A DNA stretch of 16,704 nucleotides, from the NCBI GenBank assembly GCA_944358325.1, contig CALVQV010000020.1:1-16704 (forward strand), written 5' to 3'. Under the pieces are notes generated by a model that saw nothing but the letters and a program-made list of their open reading frames with translations, searched no databases and was not told the DNA's origin. Positions 1-6,952 of this stretch are shown here, in pieces. Position 1 is the stretch's first letter; each line of letters opens with the position of its first letter. This DNA comes from an uncultured Bacilli bacterium (lineage in GTDB: Bacteria > Bacillota_I > Bacilli_A > RF39 > UBA660). Made by a program: the position numbers and the translations under genes.

Positions 1-61
1 TATGATATAATTGTTATAGAATAATTAAAATATAGAATATGATAAAATGAATTTACACAGT

Positions 62-110
62 TAAATTTACAGGGTCACACAGTAAATTTACAGGGTCTTA
101 CAGGGTCTTA
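62..110 (+). repeat. Direct-repeat array in the target-gene promoter. The 15-mer TAAATTTACAGGGTC occurs twice (62-76, 83-97; 21-bp period) and the 10-mer CAGGGTCTTA occurs twice in tandem (91-100, 101-110). Core unit is TTACAGGGTC.
   Basis: Exact repeats read directly from the sequence. A degenerate copy, AATTTACACAG, lies at 50-60. The array overlaps the predicted -35 and spacer. Confidence 0.8.
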
Positions 111-116
111 TATAAT
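87..116 (+). promoter_or_regulatory. Putative sigma-A-type promoter of the DGR target gene
   Basis: -35 TTTACA (87-92), 18-bp spacer, perfect -10 TATAAT (111-116). RBS AGGAG at 128-132 lies 7 nt before the ATG at 140. Confidence 0.45.
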
Positions 117-139
117 TTAGATAGAATAGGAGAGAAAAA

Positions 140-1819
140 ATGAAAGAAAAAGGATTCACGCTTATAGAATTACTAGCAGTCATCGTTATATTAGCAGTAA
201 TAGCTTTAATCGCAACACCACTAATTATGGGCGTTATTGATGAAGCCAAAGACGGAGCTAATAAAAGAAGTGTCCAAAGTATAAGAGATGGAGCAGAAAC
301 ATTTTTATTATCTAAAAAAACTTTAGATAGTAATTATACTTTCAATATGAATGATTATCAATTCAAAGGAAATCAATTTGGTAAAGGAACATCTGATGAA
401 AGAATTAATATTGTTTTTAATGATAAAGATGAAGCCAGTGTCGCAGTATATGAAAATAATAAATGTTATTATATCTTAGCAGGATCAAATGAAGTAAAAA
501 GTGAAACAGGCTTAGATAAACAACAATGTTTAGAAAAAGCAGGAGCAACTGAAATAGTAGAAGGAAATCCTCTACTACCACAAATAGAAGCTAACTTATG
601 TACAAGTGAAAAAACAACCGAATGTTATAAAACAGAAGGTAATGAATATATCTATACAGGAGCATATGGAACAGGTGGAGTAAACTGGTTATGGTATGGA
701 GGGCATCAATGGCGTATTATCAAAGTAGATAAAACAACTGGAAGATATACTTTAATTACATCATATCCTGCAACAGCAATTCAATGGCAAAGTAGTATAG
801 CAAATGGGCCATCATTAGAAGAGTCATATGTAGGAAATTGGTTAAATAATGTGTTTGTTGCATCATTACCAACTAATGTTCAATCAAAATTAGAAAATAT
901 GACATATACAAGAAAAGTATATGATGGAAGTAGTGTTGTAGAAGAAGAAATAAGTAATGTTAAAGTTAGACTTCTAACAGAAAATGAATATACAACTTAT
1001 GGCGGAGCAGATAGTTATTTAGATATAAAGGATTGGTGGTGGCTAGCAGATATATATACTTCGTCTCGCGTCCGTAGTGTGAACGACGGCGGCAATTTGA
1101 GCAGCGACAGGCCGTCGAGCGCGAATGGTGTGCGCGCCATTGTGGAAATATCTGATATCACCATCACAGAAGGTGATGGTACTCTTAGCGCGCCATATAT
1201 TGGAAACACAAGTAAAGCTACAAACTTATCAGATATTGCAGTCGGAGAATATATAAGTATTCCTAAAAGTGATGGTGGAACTTATTTAGCCCGTGTTGTT
1301 AAACGTGATCAAAATGGTACAAAAGTTATTCTAAATGGTTTATATAATACAAGTGCTTTTGGAAGTAATGCAACATTTTCAACAAGTAGTACAATTTATA
1401 CAGGAGCTTTAATAGGATTTAAAAATAGTTTAGATAGTAATTATTTTGATGGTACTAATCGTAATTTCAATATGACAACGTATGGAGATGGAGCAAATTA
1501 TGCAGATACAACAACTATGTTTACTGGCAATATCGGACTACCTAGCGTAGGGGAGATGTTTAGTGGAAATGATATAGATGTAACAACTAGTTCTAAAACA
1601 TTTGTAGATACAAGTAAAATATTAAATCCGACATTAAGTTCTTATTATTGGTTAATGAATGCCTATAGTTCGTCTAGCGTCCGTAATGTGAACAACTACG
1701 GCTACTTGAACAACAGCAGTCCGTCGTACACGGGTGGTGTGCGCGCCACTTGGTATATCTCTGATATCACCATTACCGGAGGTAATGGTACTCCTAGCGC
1801 CCCATATACCTTAAAATAG
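140..1819 (+). CDS. DGR target (variable) protein with a type IV pilin-like N-terminus and two tandem VR-bearing ligand-binding-type modules
   Basis: 559-aa ORF. The N-terminus MKEKG/FTLIELLAVIVILAVIALIA matches the prepilin cleavage/methylation motif (Gly-1, Phe+1, Glu+5, hydrophobic helix). Two paralogous modules (about aa 165-355 and 365-559) both end in WW(L)..SS.VR.VN..G.L....PS...GVRA...ISDITIT.G.GT.SAPY. VR1 covers aa 308-334 and VR2 covers aa 511-537. Confidence 0.9.
   Translation: MKEKGFTLIELLAVIVILAVIALIATPLIMGVIDEAKDGANKRSVQSIRDGAETFLLSKKTLDSNYTFNMNDYQFKGNQFGKGTSDERINIVFNDKDEASVAVYENNKCYYILAGSNEVKSETGLDKQQCLEKAGATEIVEGNPLLPQIEANLCTSEKTTECYKTEGNEYIYTGAYGTGGVNWLWYGGHQWRIIKVDKTTGRYTLITSYPATAIQWQSSIANGPSLEESYVGNWLNNVFVASLPTNVQSKLENMTYTRKVYDGSSVVEEEISNVKVRLLTENEYTTYGGADSYLDIKDWWWLADIYTSSRVRSVNDGGNLSSDRPSSANGVRAIVEISDITITEGDGTLSAPYIGNTSKATNLSDIAVGEYISIPKSDGGTYLARVVKRDQNGTKVILNGLYNTSAFGSNATFSTSSTIYTGALIGFKNSLDSNYFDGTNRNFNMTTYGDGANYADTTTMFTGNIGLPSVGEMFSGNDIDVTTSSKTFVDTSKILNPTLSSYYWLMNAYSSSSVRNVNNYGYLNNSSPSYTGGVRATWYISDITITGGNGTPSAPYTLK
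1062..1139 (+). repeat. DGR variable repeat 1 (VR1)
   Basis: 78-nt ungapped alignment to TR 1851-1928 with 13 mismatches. Eleven are at TR adenines (10 A->G, 1 A->C). Two are at non-adenines (TR c1885 vs t1096; TR t1900 vs g1111). It forms a GC-rich island in an AT-rich gene. Confidence 0.85.
1160..1180 (+). promoter_or_regulatory. Hairpin 20 nt downstream of VR1, a candidate DGR target-recognition (IMH-associated) stem-loop
   Basis: ACCATCAC (1160-1167) pairs with GTGATGGT (1173-1180) as an 8-bp perfect stem with loop AGAAG. The position is equivalent to the hairpin after VR2. Confidence 0.6.
1671..1748 (+). repeat. DGR variable repeat 2 (VR2)
   Basis: 78-nt ungapped alignment to TR, offset exactly 180 nt. 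There are 7 mismatches, all at TR adenines (TR 1857, 1877, 1883, 1896, 1907, 1913, 1914; 4 A->G, 3 A->T). Confidence 0.92.
1769..1789 (+). promoter_or_regulatory. Hairpin 20 nt downstream of VR2, a candidate DGR target-recognition stem-loop
   Basis: ACCATTACC (1769-1777) pairs with GGTAATGGT (1781-1789) as a 9-bp stem with loop GGA. Relative to the VR1 hairpin, a C:G pair is replaced by T:A through compensatory changes on both arms. Confidence 0.6.
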
Positions 1820-1850
1820 AGTAAGTATTGTAGGTGTAAGAACAAAAAAG

Positions 1851-1928
1851 CGTCTAACGTCCGTAATGTGAACAACAACGGCAACTTGAACAACAACAGT
1901 CCGTCGAACACGAATGGTGTGCGCGCCA
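1851..1928 (+). repeat. DGR template repeat (TR)
   Basis: Non-coding copy of the VRs, 31 nt after the target stop codon. It has 25 adenines in 78 nt, mostly as AAC/AAT codons in the VR reading frame (S N V R N V N N N G N L N N N S P S N T N G V R A). It ends in the GC-rich GGTGTGCGCGCC shared with both VRs. The 5' edge could extend to about 1841. Confidence 0.9.
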
Positions 1929-2101
1929 GAGCTCCTTGAAACTTAGAGTATATGAGTATTTTGTATATGTGAAGCCATGGAACAGTTCTTATTCCTGGGA
2001 ATATCCTAAAATTACATAAGTTTAATTAAGTTTTGGTAAGTGATGAAGAAGATTAATTAGTAATTCTTATGGGAAAACAGAAGAAATTTTTTCTTCTGTT
2101 T
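1851..2101 (+). ncRNA. Putative DGR RNA (TR plus a downstream spacer of about 145 nt), possibly the 3' UTR of the target mRNA
   Basis: No terminator lies between the target stop (1819) and the TR. The first intrinsic terminator is at 2075-2109. No credible ORF lies in 1929-2074. The 5' end of the RNA cannot be determined from sequence. Confidence 0.4.
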
Positions 2102-2109
2102 TTTAATTT
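2075..2109 (+). terminator. Rho-independent terminator after the TR and spacer
   Basis: AAACAGAAGAAA (2075-2086) pairs with TTTCTTCTGTTT (2090-2101). The core CAGAAGAA/TTCTTCTG stem is followed by a T-rich tract TTTTTAATTTT. Confidence 0.75.
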
Positions 2110-2156
2110 TTAGTATTTTTTTATGATAATTATGATGTTTTATGTTGACATTTTGC

Positions 2157-2183
2157 TTGACACGTGTGTGTGTGTGTTATTAT
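2157..2183 (+). promoter_or_regulatory. Putative promoter of the msl-avd-RT operon
   Basis: Perfect -35 TTGACA (2157-2162) and TG-extended -10 TGtTATTAT (2175-2183). The spacer is 15 bp and consists almost entirely of (GT)7. A second TTGACA lies at 2145-2150. Confidence 0.45.
2164..2177. repeat. (GT)7 dinucleotide microsatellite
   Basis: GTGTGTGTGTGTGT read directly from the sequence. It lies between the -35 and -10 elements upstream of msl. Confidence 0.95.
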
Positions 2184-2198
2184 TTGTTTGGTGATTAT

Positions 2199-2600
2199 AT
2201 GTTATATAAGGTATGGGAATGTTTGAAAGTAAGACATAGTTTTTTTGTTATTTTTATGAAGTATGGTAATTTTTATAAGGTTTATGGTGATGATGTTTTT
2301 ATTGTGTGGAAGATTACGGGGTATCGTGTTATTAATGGTGATCATATTGGTTTTCCTCTTAAGTCTTTAAATGTTGTTTTAAAAAGGTTAGAACTTTTAC
2401 ATGTTAGTTATATTGTTTATGATGGATGTGATGATTATTTGATGGTTGATGATGTTAATAATTGTTACATTAATGTTTTAAGTGAGTTTAAAGATTTATA
2501 TTTAAATGAAGATAGAATTAAAAAGATTGTGGAAAAGTTTGAATTTAAGGTTAGAGAGGATAAGGAAATGCTAGATTATTATGAAGAGTTATGGAAGTGA
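2199..2600 (+). CDS. MutS mismatch-binding domain I-like small protein (MSL-type DGR accessory protein)
   Basis: The ORF track gives 2142..2600. I prefer the ATG at 2199 (RBS GGTGA 2190-2194) because the upstream 19 codons overlap the promoter and GT tract. [33 protein letters not shown] aligns with the E. coli MutS N-terminus [59 protein letters not shown] aligns with [28 protein letters not shown]. The ORF overlaps avd by 20 nt. Confidence 0.7.
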   Translation: [133 protein letters not shown]

Positions 2601-2937
2601 TTTTGTTGTTATTAGGGAGTTTAAGAGTTTTATTTGTGTTGTTGAGGGTGAGTTTGATAATTGTCCTAAAAAGTGTTTATATTTAAAAGATAGTTTATTT
2701 GATATGTGTTATATGGTTTTAGAGGATATTTATGTGTGTAATATGGGGAATAATCGTTTGGTTTATATTAATCGTGTTATTGCTAGGTTAAGGATTATTG
2801 ATTTTATGCTTAAAAGATGTGTAGATATGGGGATTATTAGTTATAAACGTTTTTTATTTTTAGGAAATAAGTTAAATAGTGTAGTGAGAATGTGTTATGG
2901 GTGGTTAAAAAGTGAAAAGAGTAAACTTGAGGTATGA
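2581..2937 (+). CDS. avd: Avd-like accessory variability determinant (four-helix-bundle, 23S rRNA-IVS protein family)
   Basis: 118 aa, located directly upstream of the DGR RT and overlapping it by 26 nt. The helical pattern with a ..F..CPKK.. segment after helix 1 and a C-terminal MCYGWLKS matches the typical Avd layout (fPk.ek ... ml.gw.ks). The call rests on size, position and motifs only. Confidence 0.7.
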   Translation: MKSYGSDFVVIREFKSFICVVEGEFDNCPKKCLYLKDSLFDMCYMVLEDIYVCNMGNNRLVYINRVIARLRIIDFMLKRCVDMGIISYKRFLFLGNKLNSVVRMCYGWLKSEKSKLEV

Positions 2938-3883
2938 TGATGTTTTAAGTTATGAGAATCTTGAATTTATTTATTATATGCTTAGAAAAGGTGTTAAAAA
3001 TAAAGAAAAGTTAGATAAATTTGATTTATATTATAGTTCTAATATAAGTCATATTTATAGTTTGTTAAAAGAAAGAAGATATGAAGTTGGTTCTTATCAT
3101 CTTTTTTATATTTATGAACCAAAGAAAAGGCTTATTATGAGTCAGGGGATTGGTGATAAGATTGTTAATCATTTTGTTGCTTATTTCTATTTAATTCCTC
3201 TTCTTGACCCCTGTTTAATTAATAGTAATGTGGCAGTTAGGAAGAATATGGGAACTAGTTATGGTATTAAGTTATTAAAGAAATATTTTAGTAGTTTTAA
3301 AGGTGATTTTTATATTTTGAAGTGTGATATTAAGGGGTATTTTTATAATATTAATCATGATATTTTAAAAGTGTTGGTTGCAAGAAAGATTAAAGATAAA
3401 GATATTCTTAATTTAGTGTTTAAGATTATAGATAGTGTTGATAGTTATGGTATTGGAGGACTACCTATTGGTAATATGACTAGTCAGATTTTAGGTATAT
3501 ATTATTTAAATGGTTTAGACCACTATATTAAAGAAGTTTTAGGTATTAGGTGTTATATTAGGTATATGGATGATTTTATTCTTCTAGCTCGTGATAAATG
3601 TTATTTGAAAGAGTGTTTAAATAAGATTAAAGCGTATATTAGTGGATTAGGTTTAGAATTAAATTCTAAGACAATGATTAGTAGTAGTAAAAGTGGTGTT
3701 AATTTTTTGGGTTATCATTTTAGTTATGATAAGCATGTAGTTATTAAACCACATAATTATAATAAAAGAAAAATTAAACGAAAAATGAGGTTATATAAAG
3801 AAGGAAAGATAAGTTATAATAGGATTATTTGTTATAAAGGTTATTTTAGTTATTGTTCCCAAAGTAAGACATTTATAGTATAA
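2912..3883 (+). CDS. DGR-type reverse transcriptase
   Basis: 323 aa with a GTG start at 2912 and RBS GGTGG at 2900-2904. RT motifs present: EPKKRLIM, GDKIVNHF, YILKCDIKGYFYNI, LPIGNMTSQ (the DGR-specific IGxxxSQ signature), and RYMDDFILLA (YMDD catalytic box). No maturase, endonuclease or integrase extension. Confidence 0.92.
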   Translation: MKRVNLRYDDVLSYENLEFIYYMLRKGVKNKEKLDKFDLYYSSNISHIYSLLKERRYEVGSYHLFYIYEPKKRLIMSQGIGDKIVNHFVAYFYLIPLLDPCLINSNVAVRKNMGTSYGIKLLKKYFSSFKGDFYILKCDIKGYFYNINHDILKVLVARKIKDKDILNLVFKIIDSVDSYGIGGLPIGNMTSQILGIYYLNGLDHYIKEVLGIRCYIRYMDDFILLARDKCYLKECLNKIKAYISGLGLELNSKTMISSSKSGVNFLGYHFSYDKHVVIKPHNYNKRKIKRKMRLYKEGKISYNRIICYKGYFSYCSQSKTFIV

Positions 3884-3899
3884 TATTAGTGGTGATATT

Positions 3900-4844
3900 A
3901 TGAAAAAAAGAGTGGTTGTTTTAGGTGGTGGGACAGGAATGTCTACTTTATTACGTGGCTTAAAACAATTTCCTATTGATATAACAGCTGTTGTTAGTGT
4001 TTGTGATGATGGAAGAAGTACTGGAAGGTTAAGAGAGGAATTTAATATTCCAGCTGTTGGCGATATTCGTCAAGTTTTAGTAGCACTATCAGAAGTAGAA
4101 CCATTAGTAGAAAATCTTTTAAATTATCGTTTTAAGACGACTAGTGATTTAAATGGTCATACGGTTGGTAATTTACTTTTAACAGCTTTAAAAAATATTA
4201 ATGGAACGATGTCTGATGGGATTGAGTCTTTAGGTAAGATTCTTAATTTAAAAGGTAAAGTTTTACCATTAACAGAGGATAATGTTACTTTAGTAGGTTT
4301 AATGGAAGATGGTAGTAAAATAGAAGGTGAACACAATATTACAGAATCAGATTTAAGAGTTATGGAAGTTAGTTATAAAGATGCACCTATTGTTAATAAA
4401 GAGGTTATTAAAGAAATAAAGCGTGCGGATTTAATTATTTTAAGTATGGGTAGTTTATATACAAGTATTATGCCTAATTTAGTAGTTCCTGAAGTTGTTG
4501 AAGCGATTGAAAATAGTAAGGCTAAAATTATGTATGTTTGTAATATGATGACTCAACCAGGTGAAACTGATGAATATCGTGTTAGTGATCATATTAAAGC
4601 TTTAAATAAGCATTTAGGTAAACGTAGTATTGATATTGTTTTAGTTAATGATGGTGAAATACATCCAGAATTAATTAAAAGATATGCAACTTTAGAACAA
4701 AAAGATCCTGTTTTTTATGATATTGAAGAAGTTAATAAATTAGGAGTTAGAGTTATTGAAGATGATTTTGTTATTTTAGATAGAGAAATGATTCGTCATA
4801 ATTCAATGAAATTAGCTTTTCATATTTTTTCAAATTTAATGTAG
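3900..4844 (+). CDS. yvcK: Gluconeogenesis factor YvcK/GlmR family protein (UPF0052, CofD-like)
   Basis: N-terminal VVVLGGGTGMSTLLRGLK motif. 314 aa. Lies immediately upstream of whiA, as in other Firmicutes. Confidence 0.9.
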   Translation: MKKRVVVLGGGTGMSTLLRGLKQFPIDITAVVSVCDDGRSTGRLREEFNIPAVGDIRQVLVALSEVEPLVENLLNYRFKTTSDLNGHTVGNLLLTALKNINGTMSDGIESLGKILNLKGKVLPLTEDNVTLVGLMEDGSKIEGEHNITESDLRVMEVSYKDAPIVNKEVIKEIKRADLIILSMGSLYTSIMPNLVVPEVVEAIENSKAKIMYVCNMMTQPGETDEYRVSDHIKALNKHLGKRSIDIVLVNDGEIHPELIKRYATLEQKDPVFYDIEEVNKLGVRVIEDDFVILDREMIRHNSMKLAFHIFSNLM

Positions 4845-4857
4845 AATGAGGTGATTT

Positions 4858-5769
4858 ATGTCATTTACAGGTAGTGTTAAAGAAGAAGTTATTAATCTTA
4901 ATTCAAGTGATTTAGAGTCTCGTGCTTGTTTAAGTGCAATAATTCATAATGTTGGTAGTATTACAAATGATAGTATTAAAGTAGTTACGGAAAATAGTTT
5001 ACTTGCTAAATATATTGATACACTACTTAGAGATATATATGATATAACGCCTAAAATTATTGTTCGTAAAGGCTATAATTTTAATAAAAATTATTTATAT
5101 ATTATTGAATTTATTAATAAATTAGATTTAGTTATTAAAGATTTATCTTTAGATGACAATATTCCTAAGGAATATTTATATGATGATAGTGAATTATTAC
5201 GTTCTTATTTAAGAGGTATTTTCTTGGCTGTTGGAAGTATTAATGATCCAAAGAAGTCAAGATATCATTTAGAGTTCTTAGTAGATAGTAAGAAGTATGC
5301 TTATTTTATTATGGATAAGCTTAATAGTTTTAATTTAAATAGTAAAGTTTTAAAAAGAGAAACTAAGTATATGATTTATGTTAAAGAGTCAGAAAAGATT
5401 AGTGATTTTTTAAGACTTATAGGGGCTTCTAAAGCCGTTATGTACTATGAAGATATACGTATATATCGTGATCATGTTAATATGACTAATCGTCTTAATA
5501 ATTGTGAACAAGCGAATGTTGAAAAAACAATTAATGCCTCTAATGAACAAATAAAAGAAATAGAATTATTAAAAGAAAAAGATGTATATGACTTGTTAGA
5601 TGATAAAGTTAAGGAAGTAGCAGTTTACAGACTTAAATATCCTGATGTTTCTTTAACAGAGTTAAGTGAAATAATTTCGGTAGAAACAGGTAATAAAATC
5701 ACTAAATCAGGTCTTCATCATCGTATGCGTAAAATAAAAGAAATGGCTAATAAAGTAAGAAATATGTAG
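4858..5769 (+). CDS. whiA: DNA-binding protein WhiA
   Basis: 303 aa. N-terminus MSFTGSVKEE..., LAGLIDADG-like middle region (YLRGIFLAVGSINDP) and C-terminal HTH (TKSGLHHRMRKI). Conserved yvcK-whiA synteny. Confidence 0.9.
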   Translation: MSFTGSVKEEVINLNSSDLESRACLSAIIHNVGSITNDSIKVVTENSLLAKYIDTLLRDIYDITPKIIVRKGYNFNKNYLYIIEFINKLDLVIKDLSLDDNIPKEYLYDDSELLRSYLRGIFLAVGSINDPKKSRYHLEFLVDSKKYAYFIMDKLNSFNLNSKVLKRETKYMIYVKESEKISDFLRLIGASKAVMYYEDIRIYRDHVNMTNRLNNCEQANVEKTINASNEQIKEIELLKEKDVYDLLDDKVKEVAVYRLKYPDVSLTELSEIISVETGNKITKSGLHHRMRKIKEMANKVRNM

Positions 5770-5782
5770 AAAGGGTGATAGC

Positions 5783-6952
5783 ATGAAATGTATTTTAATG
5801 AATAAAAATATTGAAGTATTAGTTGCTGAGTACGATCAAGAAATTAAAGTTTTTAGTAAGATATATGAAATTAAAAATATTAAATATGCACCATTCCAAT
5901 TAGAAAATGCTTATTATAAAAAAGAAACATTTCGTGCTTCATTATCTGAATGGTTTGTTGGGAGAGGTATTCCATCATGGCGTGATGATTTAGATATTTT
6001 ATTATCTAAATTAAATATATCTACACCTAAAGAATTATTAGATAAAGCTTTTGGTTTGTCATTATCTGATCAATATTGGTTAAAGCCATATAATAGTAAT
6101 ATAAAATATGATGATATAAATTTTTTTGATCATGATTTTCAAGGCTCAGAATTTACTAATATAACATTTTCTTCTAGTAATACAAGTTCTAACAAAGTTA
6201 GTTTAATTTCCCCTAATAATACAACAGATGGGCGATTAAAAAAAACGTGGATTATTGAAAATAAGACAAGATATTTATTAAAGGGTGGTTATAAAAATGA
6301 AGTTATGCAACCATTTAATGAAGTATTAGCAACTATGATATGTAAACGTATGGGGTTTAAACATGTTCCTTATGAGCTTGCTATTGTAAATGATAAAGTA
6401 GTATCTAAATGTCCATGTTTTATTACAAAAGATACAGAATTAATAAGTGCTTATCAAATTCTTCATAATAATTGTCATAAAAATAATGCTTATATTGAAT
6501 ATATTAATATTTTAGAAGAACATGGTATTAAAAATGCTAGAGAAAATTTAGAAGATATGTTTATATTAGATTATCTAATGTTAAATGAAGATAGACATCT
6601 AGGTAATTTTGGTATAATTAGAAATGTTGAAAATTTAAAGTGGCTTGAAACAGCTCCCATTTTTGATACTGGTCAATCATTAAATATTTTAGATTATAAT
6701 GATGAAGAATTACTTATTAATGGTGCAGGAAGATTTTTCTATGAAAGTAATAATTTTGATTATTTACTTACTAAAATAAAAGATATCAAAAGATATGATT
6801 TAAATAAGTTAGATGGGTTATGTGATGAATTTGATAGTTTATTACATAAATATAGTAGTATTACACATATGACTGATAGAAGAATTGATAAAATATGTAC
6901 TTTATTAATGAGTCGTATTAACAAATTAAAAAGGTATATCAAAAGCGTTTAG
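5783..6952 (+). CDS. HipA-like serine/threonine kinase domain protein (orphan, no adjacent HipB/HTH partner)
   Basis: 389 aa. The HipA_C-type catalytic region LMLNEDRHLGNFGII (compare N.DDH.kN) is followed by APIFDTGQSL (compare APlYD). N-terminal SLSDQYWLKP motif. Confidence 0.6.
   Translation: MKCILMNKNIEVLVAEYDQEIKVFSKIYEIKNIKYAPFQLENAYYKKETFRASLSEWFVGRGIPSWRDDLDILLSKLNISTPKELLDKAFGLSLSDQYWLKPYNSNIKYDDINFFDHDFQGSEFTNITFSSSNTSSNKVSLISPNNTTDGRLKKTWIIENKTRYLLKGGYKNEVMQPFNEVLATMICKRMGFKHVPYELAIVNDKVVSKCPCFITKDTELISAYQILHNNCHKNNAYIEYINILEEHGIKNARENLEDMFILDYLMLNEDRHLGNFGIIRNVENLKWLETAPIFDTGQSLNILDYNDEELLINGAGRFFYESNNFDYLLTKIKDIKRYDLNKLDGLCDEFDSLLHKYSSITHMTDRRIDKICTLLMSRINKLKRYIKSV

Follow-up and report, generated by a model that had tools for sequence, protein, structure and literature searches.

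Do three closely similar, GC-rich repeats in an AT-rich stretch of a gut bacterial chromosome belong to a diversity-generating retroelement (DGR), and if so, how might such a mutator be controlled? The question is raised by a 16,704-nucleotide (nt) forward-strand sequence from an uncultured Bacilli bacterium (contig CALVQV010000020.1, assembly GCA_944358325.1), the whole of which we refer to as the window. At the level of sequence, the identity of the locus as a DGR is established. We are highly confident in the fuller reading, namely that it is a chromosomal DGR of the MSL-containing type operating by the mechanism proposed below; present activity and the promoter switch are inferred. The locus was compared with its relatives in a survey of 90 sequences, consisting of the window, nine loci obtained by contig look-ups and 80 obtained by a genome scan; relatives are designated by L or P numbers.

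The initial annotation had described three 78-nt copies, the third being non-coding, rich in AAC codons in the frame of the other two and different from them almost only where it carries adenine. The copies are present at exactly the positions it gave (Table 1), with a GC content of 51-65% compared to 28% in the window. A degenerate pattern of the third copy, the template repeat (TR), with N at each adenine and at most three mismatches, matched these three sites alone and found nothing in 200 shuffles. In the alignment of the TR with the two variable repeats (VR1 and VR2), 18 of 20 mismatches fall at TR adenines (combined binomial p = 1.2e-7), the changes comprising 14 A>G, three A>T and one A>C. 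Both exceptions, C1885>T and T1900>G, are in VR1. The TR begins 31 nt past the target stop codon, outside any plus-strand open reading frame (ORF), and its translation in the VR frame, SNVRNVNNNGNLNNNSPSNTNGVRA, includes nine AAC and two AAT codons. The adenine bias and the AAC-rich, non-coding nature of the third copy were both borne out. Its 3' end is an adenine-free, GC-rich GGTGTGCGCGCC followed by a final A, which is common to both VRs; the GC-rich end GGTGTGCGCGCCA is common to all three copies.

The consequences of this pattern are visible in the target protein and its homologues. Variable codons were defined as those with A at TR codon position 1 or 2, giving 13 per VR. Among 45 homologues (39-88% identity), column entropy was 2.6-2.8 bits at these codons, compared with 1.15 bits outside the VRs and 0.6-0.7 bits at the remaining codons within them. 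In P0143, a homologue with 88% identity, 19 of the 26 A-codon residues depart from the window protein, as do 2 of the 24 remaining VR residues and 8.8% of residues elsewhere. The VRs of different assemblies are either identical or differ mainly at A codons. Furthermore, the TR of L008, from the sister lineage, is changed at synonymous non-adenine positions near its 3' end, where GGCGTTCGTGCCA replaces GGTGTGCGCGCCA, and VR2 of L008 carries the same replacement; in the window and L005, GGTGTGCGCGCCA is found in both TR and VR. The comparison with relatives demonstrates that TR information has passed into the VRs in the past.

An Avd-like ORF and a reverse transcriptase (RT) with a DGR motif had also been noted downstream on the same strand, and both are present there. 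A profile built from the window RT and 15 homologues aligned end to end with Protein Data Bank (PDB) entry 8ub7 (328 residues, E = 2.5e-39), which was the best match by 13 orders of magnitude, ahead of group II intron RTs (3.9e-26) and retron RTs (4e-24). From its length and sequence, and from the cryo-EM preprint by Handa et al., 8ub7 is taken here as bRT, the RT of the Bordetella phage DGR. Scores against the NCBIfam group II, retron and defence RT (DRT) models were all far below the curated cut-offs (98.6 bits against 300 for group II). Assignment as a retron, group II or defence RT was rejected on the PDB profile and NCBIfam scores. The size, basic isoelectric point (pI) and position of the avd product fit Avd. 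The longest msl ORF starts at 2142, upstream of the msl promoter; the start is likely to be the ATG at 2199, because the promoter occupies 2157-2183 and gene callers place the start of the L002, L005 and L008 genes at the corresponding codon (133 aa). When a profile of 21 MSL proteins drawn from related loci was searched against the PDB, only domain I of MutS, MSH6 and MSH3 was retrieved (best 2e-4). Within the G-x-F-Y-E motif, the mismatch-stacking Phe never varies, but the Glu has not been conserved.

No HRDC domain was found in Pfam scans, and with its small MutS-like ORF beside avd and no HRDC the cassette falls under the definition of Architecture D, the name given to MSL-containing DGRs by Wu et al. 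2017 (PMC5758913), into which the order target-TR-msl-avd-RT fits. The DGR itself is therefore of a known type and architecture. The initial annotation was right that the element is complete and cellular, with the target, two VRs, TR, msl, avd and RT all on one strand, and that a terminator followed by a separate promoter lies between TR and msl. Its description of the layout as unusual does not hold for the gene order, which is ordinary, is the usual one in this RT clade and occurs in about 25 of the 90 surveyed sequences, several of them with two VRs. It does hold for the module of terminator plus TTGACA-(GT)n promoter, which is peculiar to the RT subclade of the window, more distant relatives with the same gene order having neither. 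The prepilin-type N-terminus of the target, the (GT)n tract and the odd base composition of the enzyme genes had escaped the initial annotation.

Table 1 Features of the DGR locus and related sites. Coordinates refer to the window unless a relative is named.
Feature	Position	Strand	Description
Target gene promoter-like site	87..116	+	TTTACA, 18 nt, TATAAT; 11/12 consensus matches (promoter scan)
Target gene	140..1819	+	559 aa; prepilin-type N-terminus, pilin helix, two DUF6273/C-lectin-like modules each ending in a VR
VR1	1062..1139	+	residues about 308-334; 13 mismatches to TR, 11 at TR adenines (hypergeometric p = 2.9e-5)
Hairpin after VR1	1160..1180	+	ACCATCAC-AGAAG-GTGATGGT; DNA fold -7.6 kcal/mol, z = -2.0
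VR2	1671..1748	+	residues about 511-537; 7 mismatches to TR, all 7 at TR adenines (hypergeometric p = 1.8e-4)
Hairpin after VR2	1769..1789	+	ACCATTACC-GGA-GGTAATGGT; DNA fold z = -2.65
TR-bracketing helix, 5' strand	1832..1843	+	pairs with 1985-1996; equivalent to the published 'cPRT Stop' duplex
TR	1851..1928	+	non-coding; 25 adenines in 78 nt; 11 AAY codons in VR frame
Stem-loop P1	1948..1968	+	19 nt 3' of TR; 8 bp, loop GUAUU; equivalent to Avd-binding stem-loop
TR-bracketing helix, 3' strand	1985..1996	+	57 nt 3' of TR
Stem-loop P3	1996..2008	+	
A run	2008..2011	+	
Intrinsic terminator	2072..2104	+	15-pair stem, T run; relatives keep the stem and vary the loop
msl-avd-RT promoter	2157..2183	+	-35 TTGACA 2157-2162; C(GT)7 2163-2177; -10 TATTAT 2178-2183 preceded by TG
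msl	2199..2600	+	133 aa from ATG 2199; MutS domain I-like; Pfam MutS_I 3.9e-4
avd	2581..2937	+	probable Avd; 118 aa, pI 9.0; NCBIfam DivGenRetAVD 2.6e-8, PHROG 3.4e-8, Pfam bAvd 1.2e-3
RT	2912..3883	+	323 aa; IGNMTSQ (nt 3467), YMDD (nt 3563); RVT_1 2.6e-16
TTGACA-(GT)n loci	window, L002-L010, L012, L014-L017, L019, L047, L090, L170, L172-L174		
Upstream (GT)4-5 tract in relatives	L008 750-760; L015 2992-3001; L019 2793-2802; L090 1681-1690; L170 about 1150		

The nucleic acid elements expected around the repeats of a DGR were sought in the same region. Each VR possesses the two target recognition elements of a DGR, the GGTGTGCGCGCCA end and a hairpin 20 nt beyond its own 3' end. Between the VR1 and VR2 hairpins one stem pair is changed on both sides with pairing kept, and the hairpin is also found in L008, L015 and L090 with different loops. 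Around the TR, Handa et al. 2024 described a cPRT-Stop duplex, an Avd-binding stem-loop and a stem-loop with adenosines in the Bordetella DGR and predicted them in 207 others; the elements flanking the TR of the window match these. Each of the three is found again in eight lineages, with compensatory changes such as GAAC/GUUC, GAAU/AUUC, GCAAGAAU/AUUCUUGC and AAAGAU/AUCUUU, and P1 is present in all eight with differing sequence and a stem of 8-10 bp. These results were obtained from single-sequence and duplex folds with shuffles, which were used because RNAalifold on a MAFFT alignment recovered P1 only, owing to misplaced gaps. The comparison with relatives establishes the presence of the predicted DGR RNA elements around the TR. 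Between the window and L005, identity reaches 98% over the segment from TR to terminator, compared with 81-89% for housekeeping genes. A hairpin with a GGAA/UUCC stem 3' of P1 was considered and dropped, as its 'loop' pairs with the 5' flank of the TR. An Rfam scan of positions 1-4200 at E <= 1 gave no match, and hence neither intron RNA domains nor retron msr/msd.

Two variations on this arrangement were seen among relatives. In L015, L016, L017, L047, L012 and L172, a strong GC-rich hairpin (for example CACACCTTGCC...GGCAAGGTGTG) without a T run lies between the target stop codon and the 5' strand of the bracketing helix; the window has no such hairpin there. In L064, L066, L072, L083 and L085, more distant relatives that share the gene order, neither a terminator nor a promoter separates the RNA flanking the TR from the ribosome-binding site of msl, and TR and enzymes would be co-transcribed in these.

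The target of the DGR begins MKEKG/FTLIELLAVIV..., in which MKEKG/FTLIELLAVIVILAVIALIATP is a prepilin cleavage/methylation motif. It scores above the cut-offs of both Pfam N_methyl (2.7e-7; 30.3 bits against 21.2) and NCBIfam IV_pilin_GFxxxE (TIGR02532; 2.5e-7; 30.2 bits against 16.3), and it matches Pfam DUF6273 at 3.6e-6. An AlphaFold model of moderate confidence (pLDDT 74.7) consists of a helix (residues 8-62), a small beta domain and two alike modules ending in the VRs. Foldseek searches with this model retrieved the IgA peptidase of Thomasclavelia ramosa (E = 8e-7) and the C-terminal (DUF1566) domain of Legionella Lcl (probability 0.97). The N-terminal domain of the T. ramosa peptidase has been assigned to DUF6273 (PMC12402451), and DUF6273 has been described both as C-lectin-like and as a target domain of phage DGRs (PMC10743442). 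On the DUF6273 and Foldseek matches, the VRs end C-lectin-like modules, as in DGR targets. More than 2,000 homologues of the target were found, many of equal length and with the same make-up of N_methyl and DUF6273. Given its prepilin signal, the target is probably a substrate of prepilin peptidase that is presented on a type IV pilus-like fibre.

The promoter-like site upstream of the target gene was identified by its match to consensus, and a promoter function is predicted for it. Three direct copies of TTACAGGGTC at 62-105 overlap the -35 element of this site, two of them within the 21-nt tandem unit TAAATTTACAGGGTC..., and these copies are possibly an operator. The corresponding upstream region of L008 differs from that of the window. 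In several relatives (Table 1), a short (GT)4-5 tract, invariant in length and set within TTC(C)GTGTGTGTGTAATTT, precedes the target start by about 100-130 nt, although the cassettes that bear it lie at different places in the chromosome. It may serve as a regulator site or mark a cassette boundary. The window lacks it.

A distinctive part of the locus is the promoter of msl-avd-RT, in which a GT dinucleotide tract forms the spacer between a perfect -35 hexamer and the -10 element, followed by a GGTGA ribosome-binding site and the ATG at 2199. The hexamers were assigned by consensus only, the promoter scan having omitted the site since its 15-nt spacer is shorter than the minimum of 16. The succession of terminator, TTGACA, 0-2 nt, (GT)n and -10 element recurs in 22 sequences (Table 1), with n ranging from 4 to 11 and the spacer from 9 to 24 nt, and is kept where RT identity falls to 50-57%. 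In the lineage that we designate the 85% lineage, six assemblies with 98-100% identity over the 150-nt flanks carry n = 4, 6, 6, 6, 10 and 10; among relatives, L008 and L009 encode identical target proteins and have n = 6 and n = 10, respectively, while L170 has n = 10 and L174 n = 6. In both close lineages the spacer equals 2n + 1, such that n = 8 gives 17 nt; the window (n = 7) is one GT unit below this optimum. The tract thus appears to form the promoter spacer, to be kept by selection and to mutate much faster than its flanks, and so bears the sequence-level hallmarks of a slipped-strand contingency switch, the switch itself being a candidate.

Contingency promoters based on simple sequence repeats include the (TA)n spacer of the Haemophilus influenzae hif fimbriae and the homopolymer spacers of Neisseria porA and opc. 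As in those cases, the tract forms the -35/-10 spacer and varies in length between otherwise identical strains. Unlike them, the tract of the window would control a mutator (RT, Avd and MSL) and not a surface antigen, and it also supplies the TG of an extended -10 element. We advance, tentatively and as a proposition falling a little short of evenly balanced, that a slipped-strand (GT)n promoter switch governs MSL, Avd and RT and that hypermutation of the pilin-like adhesin is phase-variable. In the literature, we found no paper linking a DGR to a simple sequence repeat, and a recent study describes retrohoming as being under unknown control.

Other repeats and a further TTGACA were also seen. 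The window and the L004 lineage have an extra segment of about 40 nt (2105-2150) between terminator and promoter, absent from the 85% lineage, with a second TTGACA at 2145-2150. Near more distant MSL-type cassettes there are other simple-sequence tracts. A G9 tract lies 124 nt upstream of msl in L011 and another G9 occurs in L054, while L100, L144 and L146 have G9-G10 tracts about 2.5-2.8 kb upstream of msl. Long TG, GT, CT or AC tracts occur in L021, L078, L036, L068, L086 and L131.

Taken together, the parts suggest the following mechanism. The target gene and TR would be transcribed as one RNA from 87-116 to the terminator at 2072-2104, since the interval from the target stop codon to the TR contains no terminator. 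This RNA would hold the TR between the helix 1832-1843/1985-1996, the stem-loop at 1948-1968 and the small stem-loop with its adenosines; in the Bordetella phage DGR the corresponding elements position RT-Avd, prime cDNA synthesis and stop it. RT with Avd would copy the TR into cDNA, misincorporating opposite adenines, and the cDNA would replace VR1 and VR2, guided by the GGTGTGCGCGCCA end and the hairpin beyond each VR. Thirteen codons would in this way be recoded in each of the two C-lectin-like modules of a protein with a prepilin signal. By homology, MSL probably binds the mismatched heteroduplex of cDNA and target. The enzymes would be expressed from their separate promoter, where slippage of the tract would alter the -35/-10 spacing and move mutagenesis up or down at random in a subpopulation. 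The mutator would run low in most cells and be turned on in a minority lying a single slippage step from them.

Several observations weigh against this interpretation and are best considered together with the explanations that they favour. The strongest of these explanations is that (GT)n is no switch but a neutral microsatellite, a Z-DNA-prone element or a regulator site, and that msl-avd-RT expression is independent of its length; we incline against this, while regarding it as a serious possibility. The -10 element is always preceded by TG, and an extended -10 can work without a -35 element and could lessen dependence upon it, in which case tract length may tune expression rather than switch it. 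The spacers show no peak at 17 nt, a spacer of 16-18 nt being found in 1 of about 20 assemblies, and the constant (GT)4-5 upstream of the target gene in L008, L015, L019, L090 and L170 suggests a recognised motif. (A tendency of spacers to avoid 17 nt was not significant with about 20 assemblies and is not claimed.) Conversely, the tract falls exactly between a perfect TTGACA and the -10 element in all 22 instances, in company with RTs down to 50% identity, and a neutral microsatellite would not stay at one position over such divergence. Additionally, GT/TG tracts of at least six units hardly occur outside this site across 835 kb of loci, and the tract-free relative L013 has TTGCAA-17-TATAAT, with a spacer of 17 nt, at the same place.

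A second explanation, which we consider unlikely, is that the locus is a DGR by descent that is now quiescent or decaying, with fossil VRs and hardly expressed enzymes. The VRs are identical in two pairs of independent assemblies (window and P0264; L008 and L009), and current activity of the DGR is presumptive. VR1 has its two non-adenine mismatches in the window, while in L008 it has a 3-nt insertion and an outdated 3' end that was not brought into line with the TR of that locus; VR1 may thus be updated infrequently, or may be decaying. The promoter spacer of the window lies outside 16-18 nt, and the enzyme genes are strongly skewed in composition (see below). L019 has unrelated sequence in place of the TR (about 5000-5230) and a tract reduced to (GT)4, with target, msl, avd and RT kept, and looks like a decaying DGR. 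Against quiescence, however, the msl, avd and RT ORFs are intact in every assembly of the lineages designated 96% and 85%, the catalytic motifs of the RT are intact, and VR2 departs from the TR at adenines only. The TR together with the RNA around it is 98% conserved between species that differ by 11-19% in their housekeeping genes, and a single slippage step would restore the 17-nt spacer.

Two further points tell against individual components of the proposed system. Display on a pilus is read from a 25-residue motif and a predicted helix, and neither pilus nor com genes occur within the 16.7-kb window. Avd and MSL both fall below curated family cut-offs, Avd scoring 34 bits against 80 for DivGenRetAVD and 19.8 bits against 40 for Pfam bAvd.

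Far less probable is the idea that the cassette belongs to a prophage or other mobile element. Homologous cassettes do sit elsewhere on the chromosome in other species (following rplQ in L170, preceding rpmE in L172), and DUF6273 targets are known from phage DGRs (PMC10743442). As the initial annotation had stated, however, no phage, integrase or transposase gene is found among the plus-strand ORFs of the window. The cassette is followed by yvcK/cofD, whiA, a DHH gene, rplI, dnaB, spoIIR, fba and murA, and these flanking housekeeping genes are syntenic across two species-level lineages; the upstream neighbour in L008 is a trxB-like gene. The best relatives of the RT are 84% and 46-57% identical in genomes and metagenomes, compared with 42% in the viral collection, where the scan found nothing above that value. 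The relatives are gut metagenome-assembled genomes labelled 'uncultured Bacilli bacterium'; the nearest species-representative genome, CALVXF01, carries the 84% identical RT, and the metagenome scan added L090 as the sole closer relative. Contigs of close relatives nearly always break at or near the TR, as expected of a region that is repeated and possibly heterogeneous, and few alternative VR alleles are readable as DNA; there is no contig on record for P0143. That the repeats arose through domain duplication and gene conversion, beside the RT of a retron, group II intron or defence element, can be given almost no weight: VR1 and VR2 do sit within a duplicated 145-nt segment (79% identical) and the RT also scores on group II, retron and DRT models, but those scores are far below the cut-offs with 8ub7 the best solved relative, the non-coding third copy matches over exactly 78 nt with adenine-specific mismatches (p about 1e-7), Avd and MSL are adjacent, and Rfam detects no intron RNA domains or msr/msd.

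The genes are all co-oriented, with a rising cumulative GC skew, and the cassette lies near rplI-dnaB, which fits the co-directional, origin-proximal placement that DGR targets are reported to favour. The DGR had been held to be the only accessory system in the window, and in this the initial annotation needs correction. A HipA-like kinase gene at 5783-6952 (Pfam HipA_C; PADLOC candidate defence family PDC-M03A), flanked by whiA and the DHH gene, is a second accessory gene. It is missing from the sister lineage (L005-L007), in which DHH directly follows whiA.

The enzyme genes possess an unusual base composition. Sense-strand C makes up 2-5% of msl, avd and RT, compared with 8-11% of neighbouring genes, and this depletion is common to all relatives with the (GT)n promoter. 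Across 2142-5800, GC skew reaches 0.86 in msl-avd-RT and is 0.42 in cofD, 0.33 in whiA and 0.2-0.3 in later genes. A low A content (0.30 compared with 0.42-0.48) together with high G is found only in the window and L008/L005 lineages. The polarity of substitutions was assessed at positions where at least four of five outgroups agree, each lineage being taken as focal in turn. The window has changed 38% of conserved adenines (67 A>G, 53 A>T and 9 A>C) compared with 16% of thymines; with other lineages as focal, 18-21% of adenines and 16-22% of thymines were changed. At synonymous third codon positions, the window keeps 49% of adenines (61-77% in other focal lineages) and 92% of thymines. Third-position adenine frequency is 0.20-0.25 in the three enzyme genes and 0.30-0.44 in housekeeping genes; the shift occurs abruptly at the RT stop codon, and no such effect is seen in the target gene. 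Counts of A<>G against T<>C substitutions for the window and L005 were given no evidential weight, because the scarcity of C confounds them.

A spectrum that is adenine-specific on the sense strand and dominated by A>G is the product of a DGR enzyme, and for that reason it is possible that the DGR has been mutating its own operon through cDNA of its own mRNA, although this is more speculative than the switch. Transcription-linked deamination, or a history of the cassette in another replicon, are conceivable alternative sources of the adenine loss.

Comparison with known systems places these features in context. The prototype, the DGR of Bordetella phage BPP-1 (mtd-avd-TR-brt), shares with the window adenine-specific differences between TR and VR, Avd (probable in the window), an RT with the I/LGxxxSQ motif, a GC-rich 3' end that the repeats have in common, and a hairpin following the VR. 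Unlike the prototype, the element of the window is cellular, its TR lies upstream of the accessory genes with a terminator and promoter between, it has the additional MSL gene, and its target is a pilin-like DUF6273 protein with two VRs in place of the Mtd tail-fibre protein. Closer likenesses are found among Architecture D elements, including the Legionella DGR and Bacteroides Bfr, Bth and Bun (10.1101/2024.11.15.621889), which have a MutS-domain-I-like protein by avd and RT and a DUF1566/C-lectin-like variable domain on a surface protein. Targets of the Bacteroides DGRs are pilus tip adhesins, and their activity is tightly regulated at transcription (10.1101/2024.11.15.621889). The window differs in its host, an uncultured gut Bacilli, in an enzyme operon with its own (GT)n promoter, and in a target with a type IV prepilin N-terminus and not a lipoprotein or type V pilus signal. 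Phage 'tentaclin' targets (PMC10743442) likewise carry the VR on a C-lectin-like DUF6273 domain; in the window, by contrast, the gene is cellular and joins two tandem VR modules to a pilin N-terminus.

The locus thus adds one more cellular DGR of known architecture, from gut Bacilli, with a class of target (prepilin-type, with two variable C-lectin-like modules) mentioned only in passing in surveys (PMC11661182). Its main value lies in the candidate stochastic switch on mutator genes, which is a concrete hypothesis and cheap to test. Should the adenine-specific decay of the enzyme genes prove to be self-inflicted, it would be the first sign of an off-target cost of a DGR.

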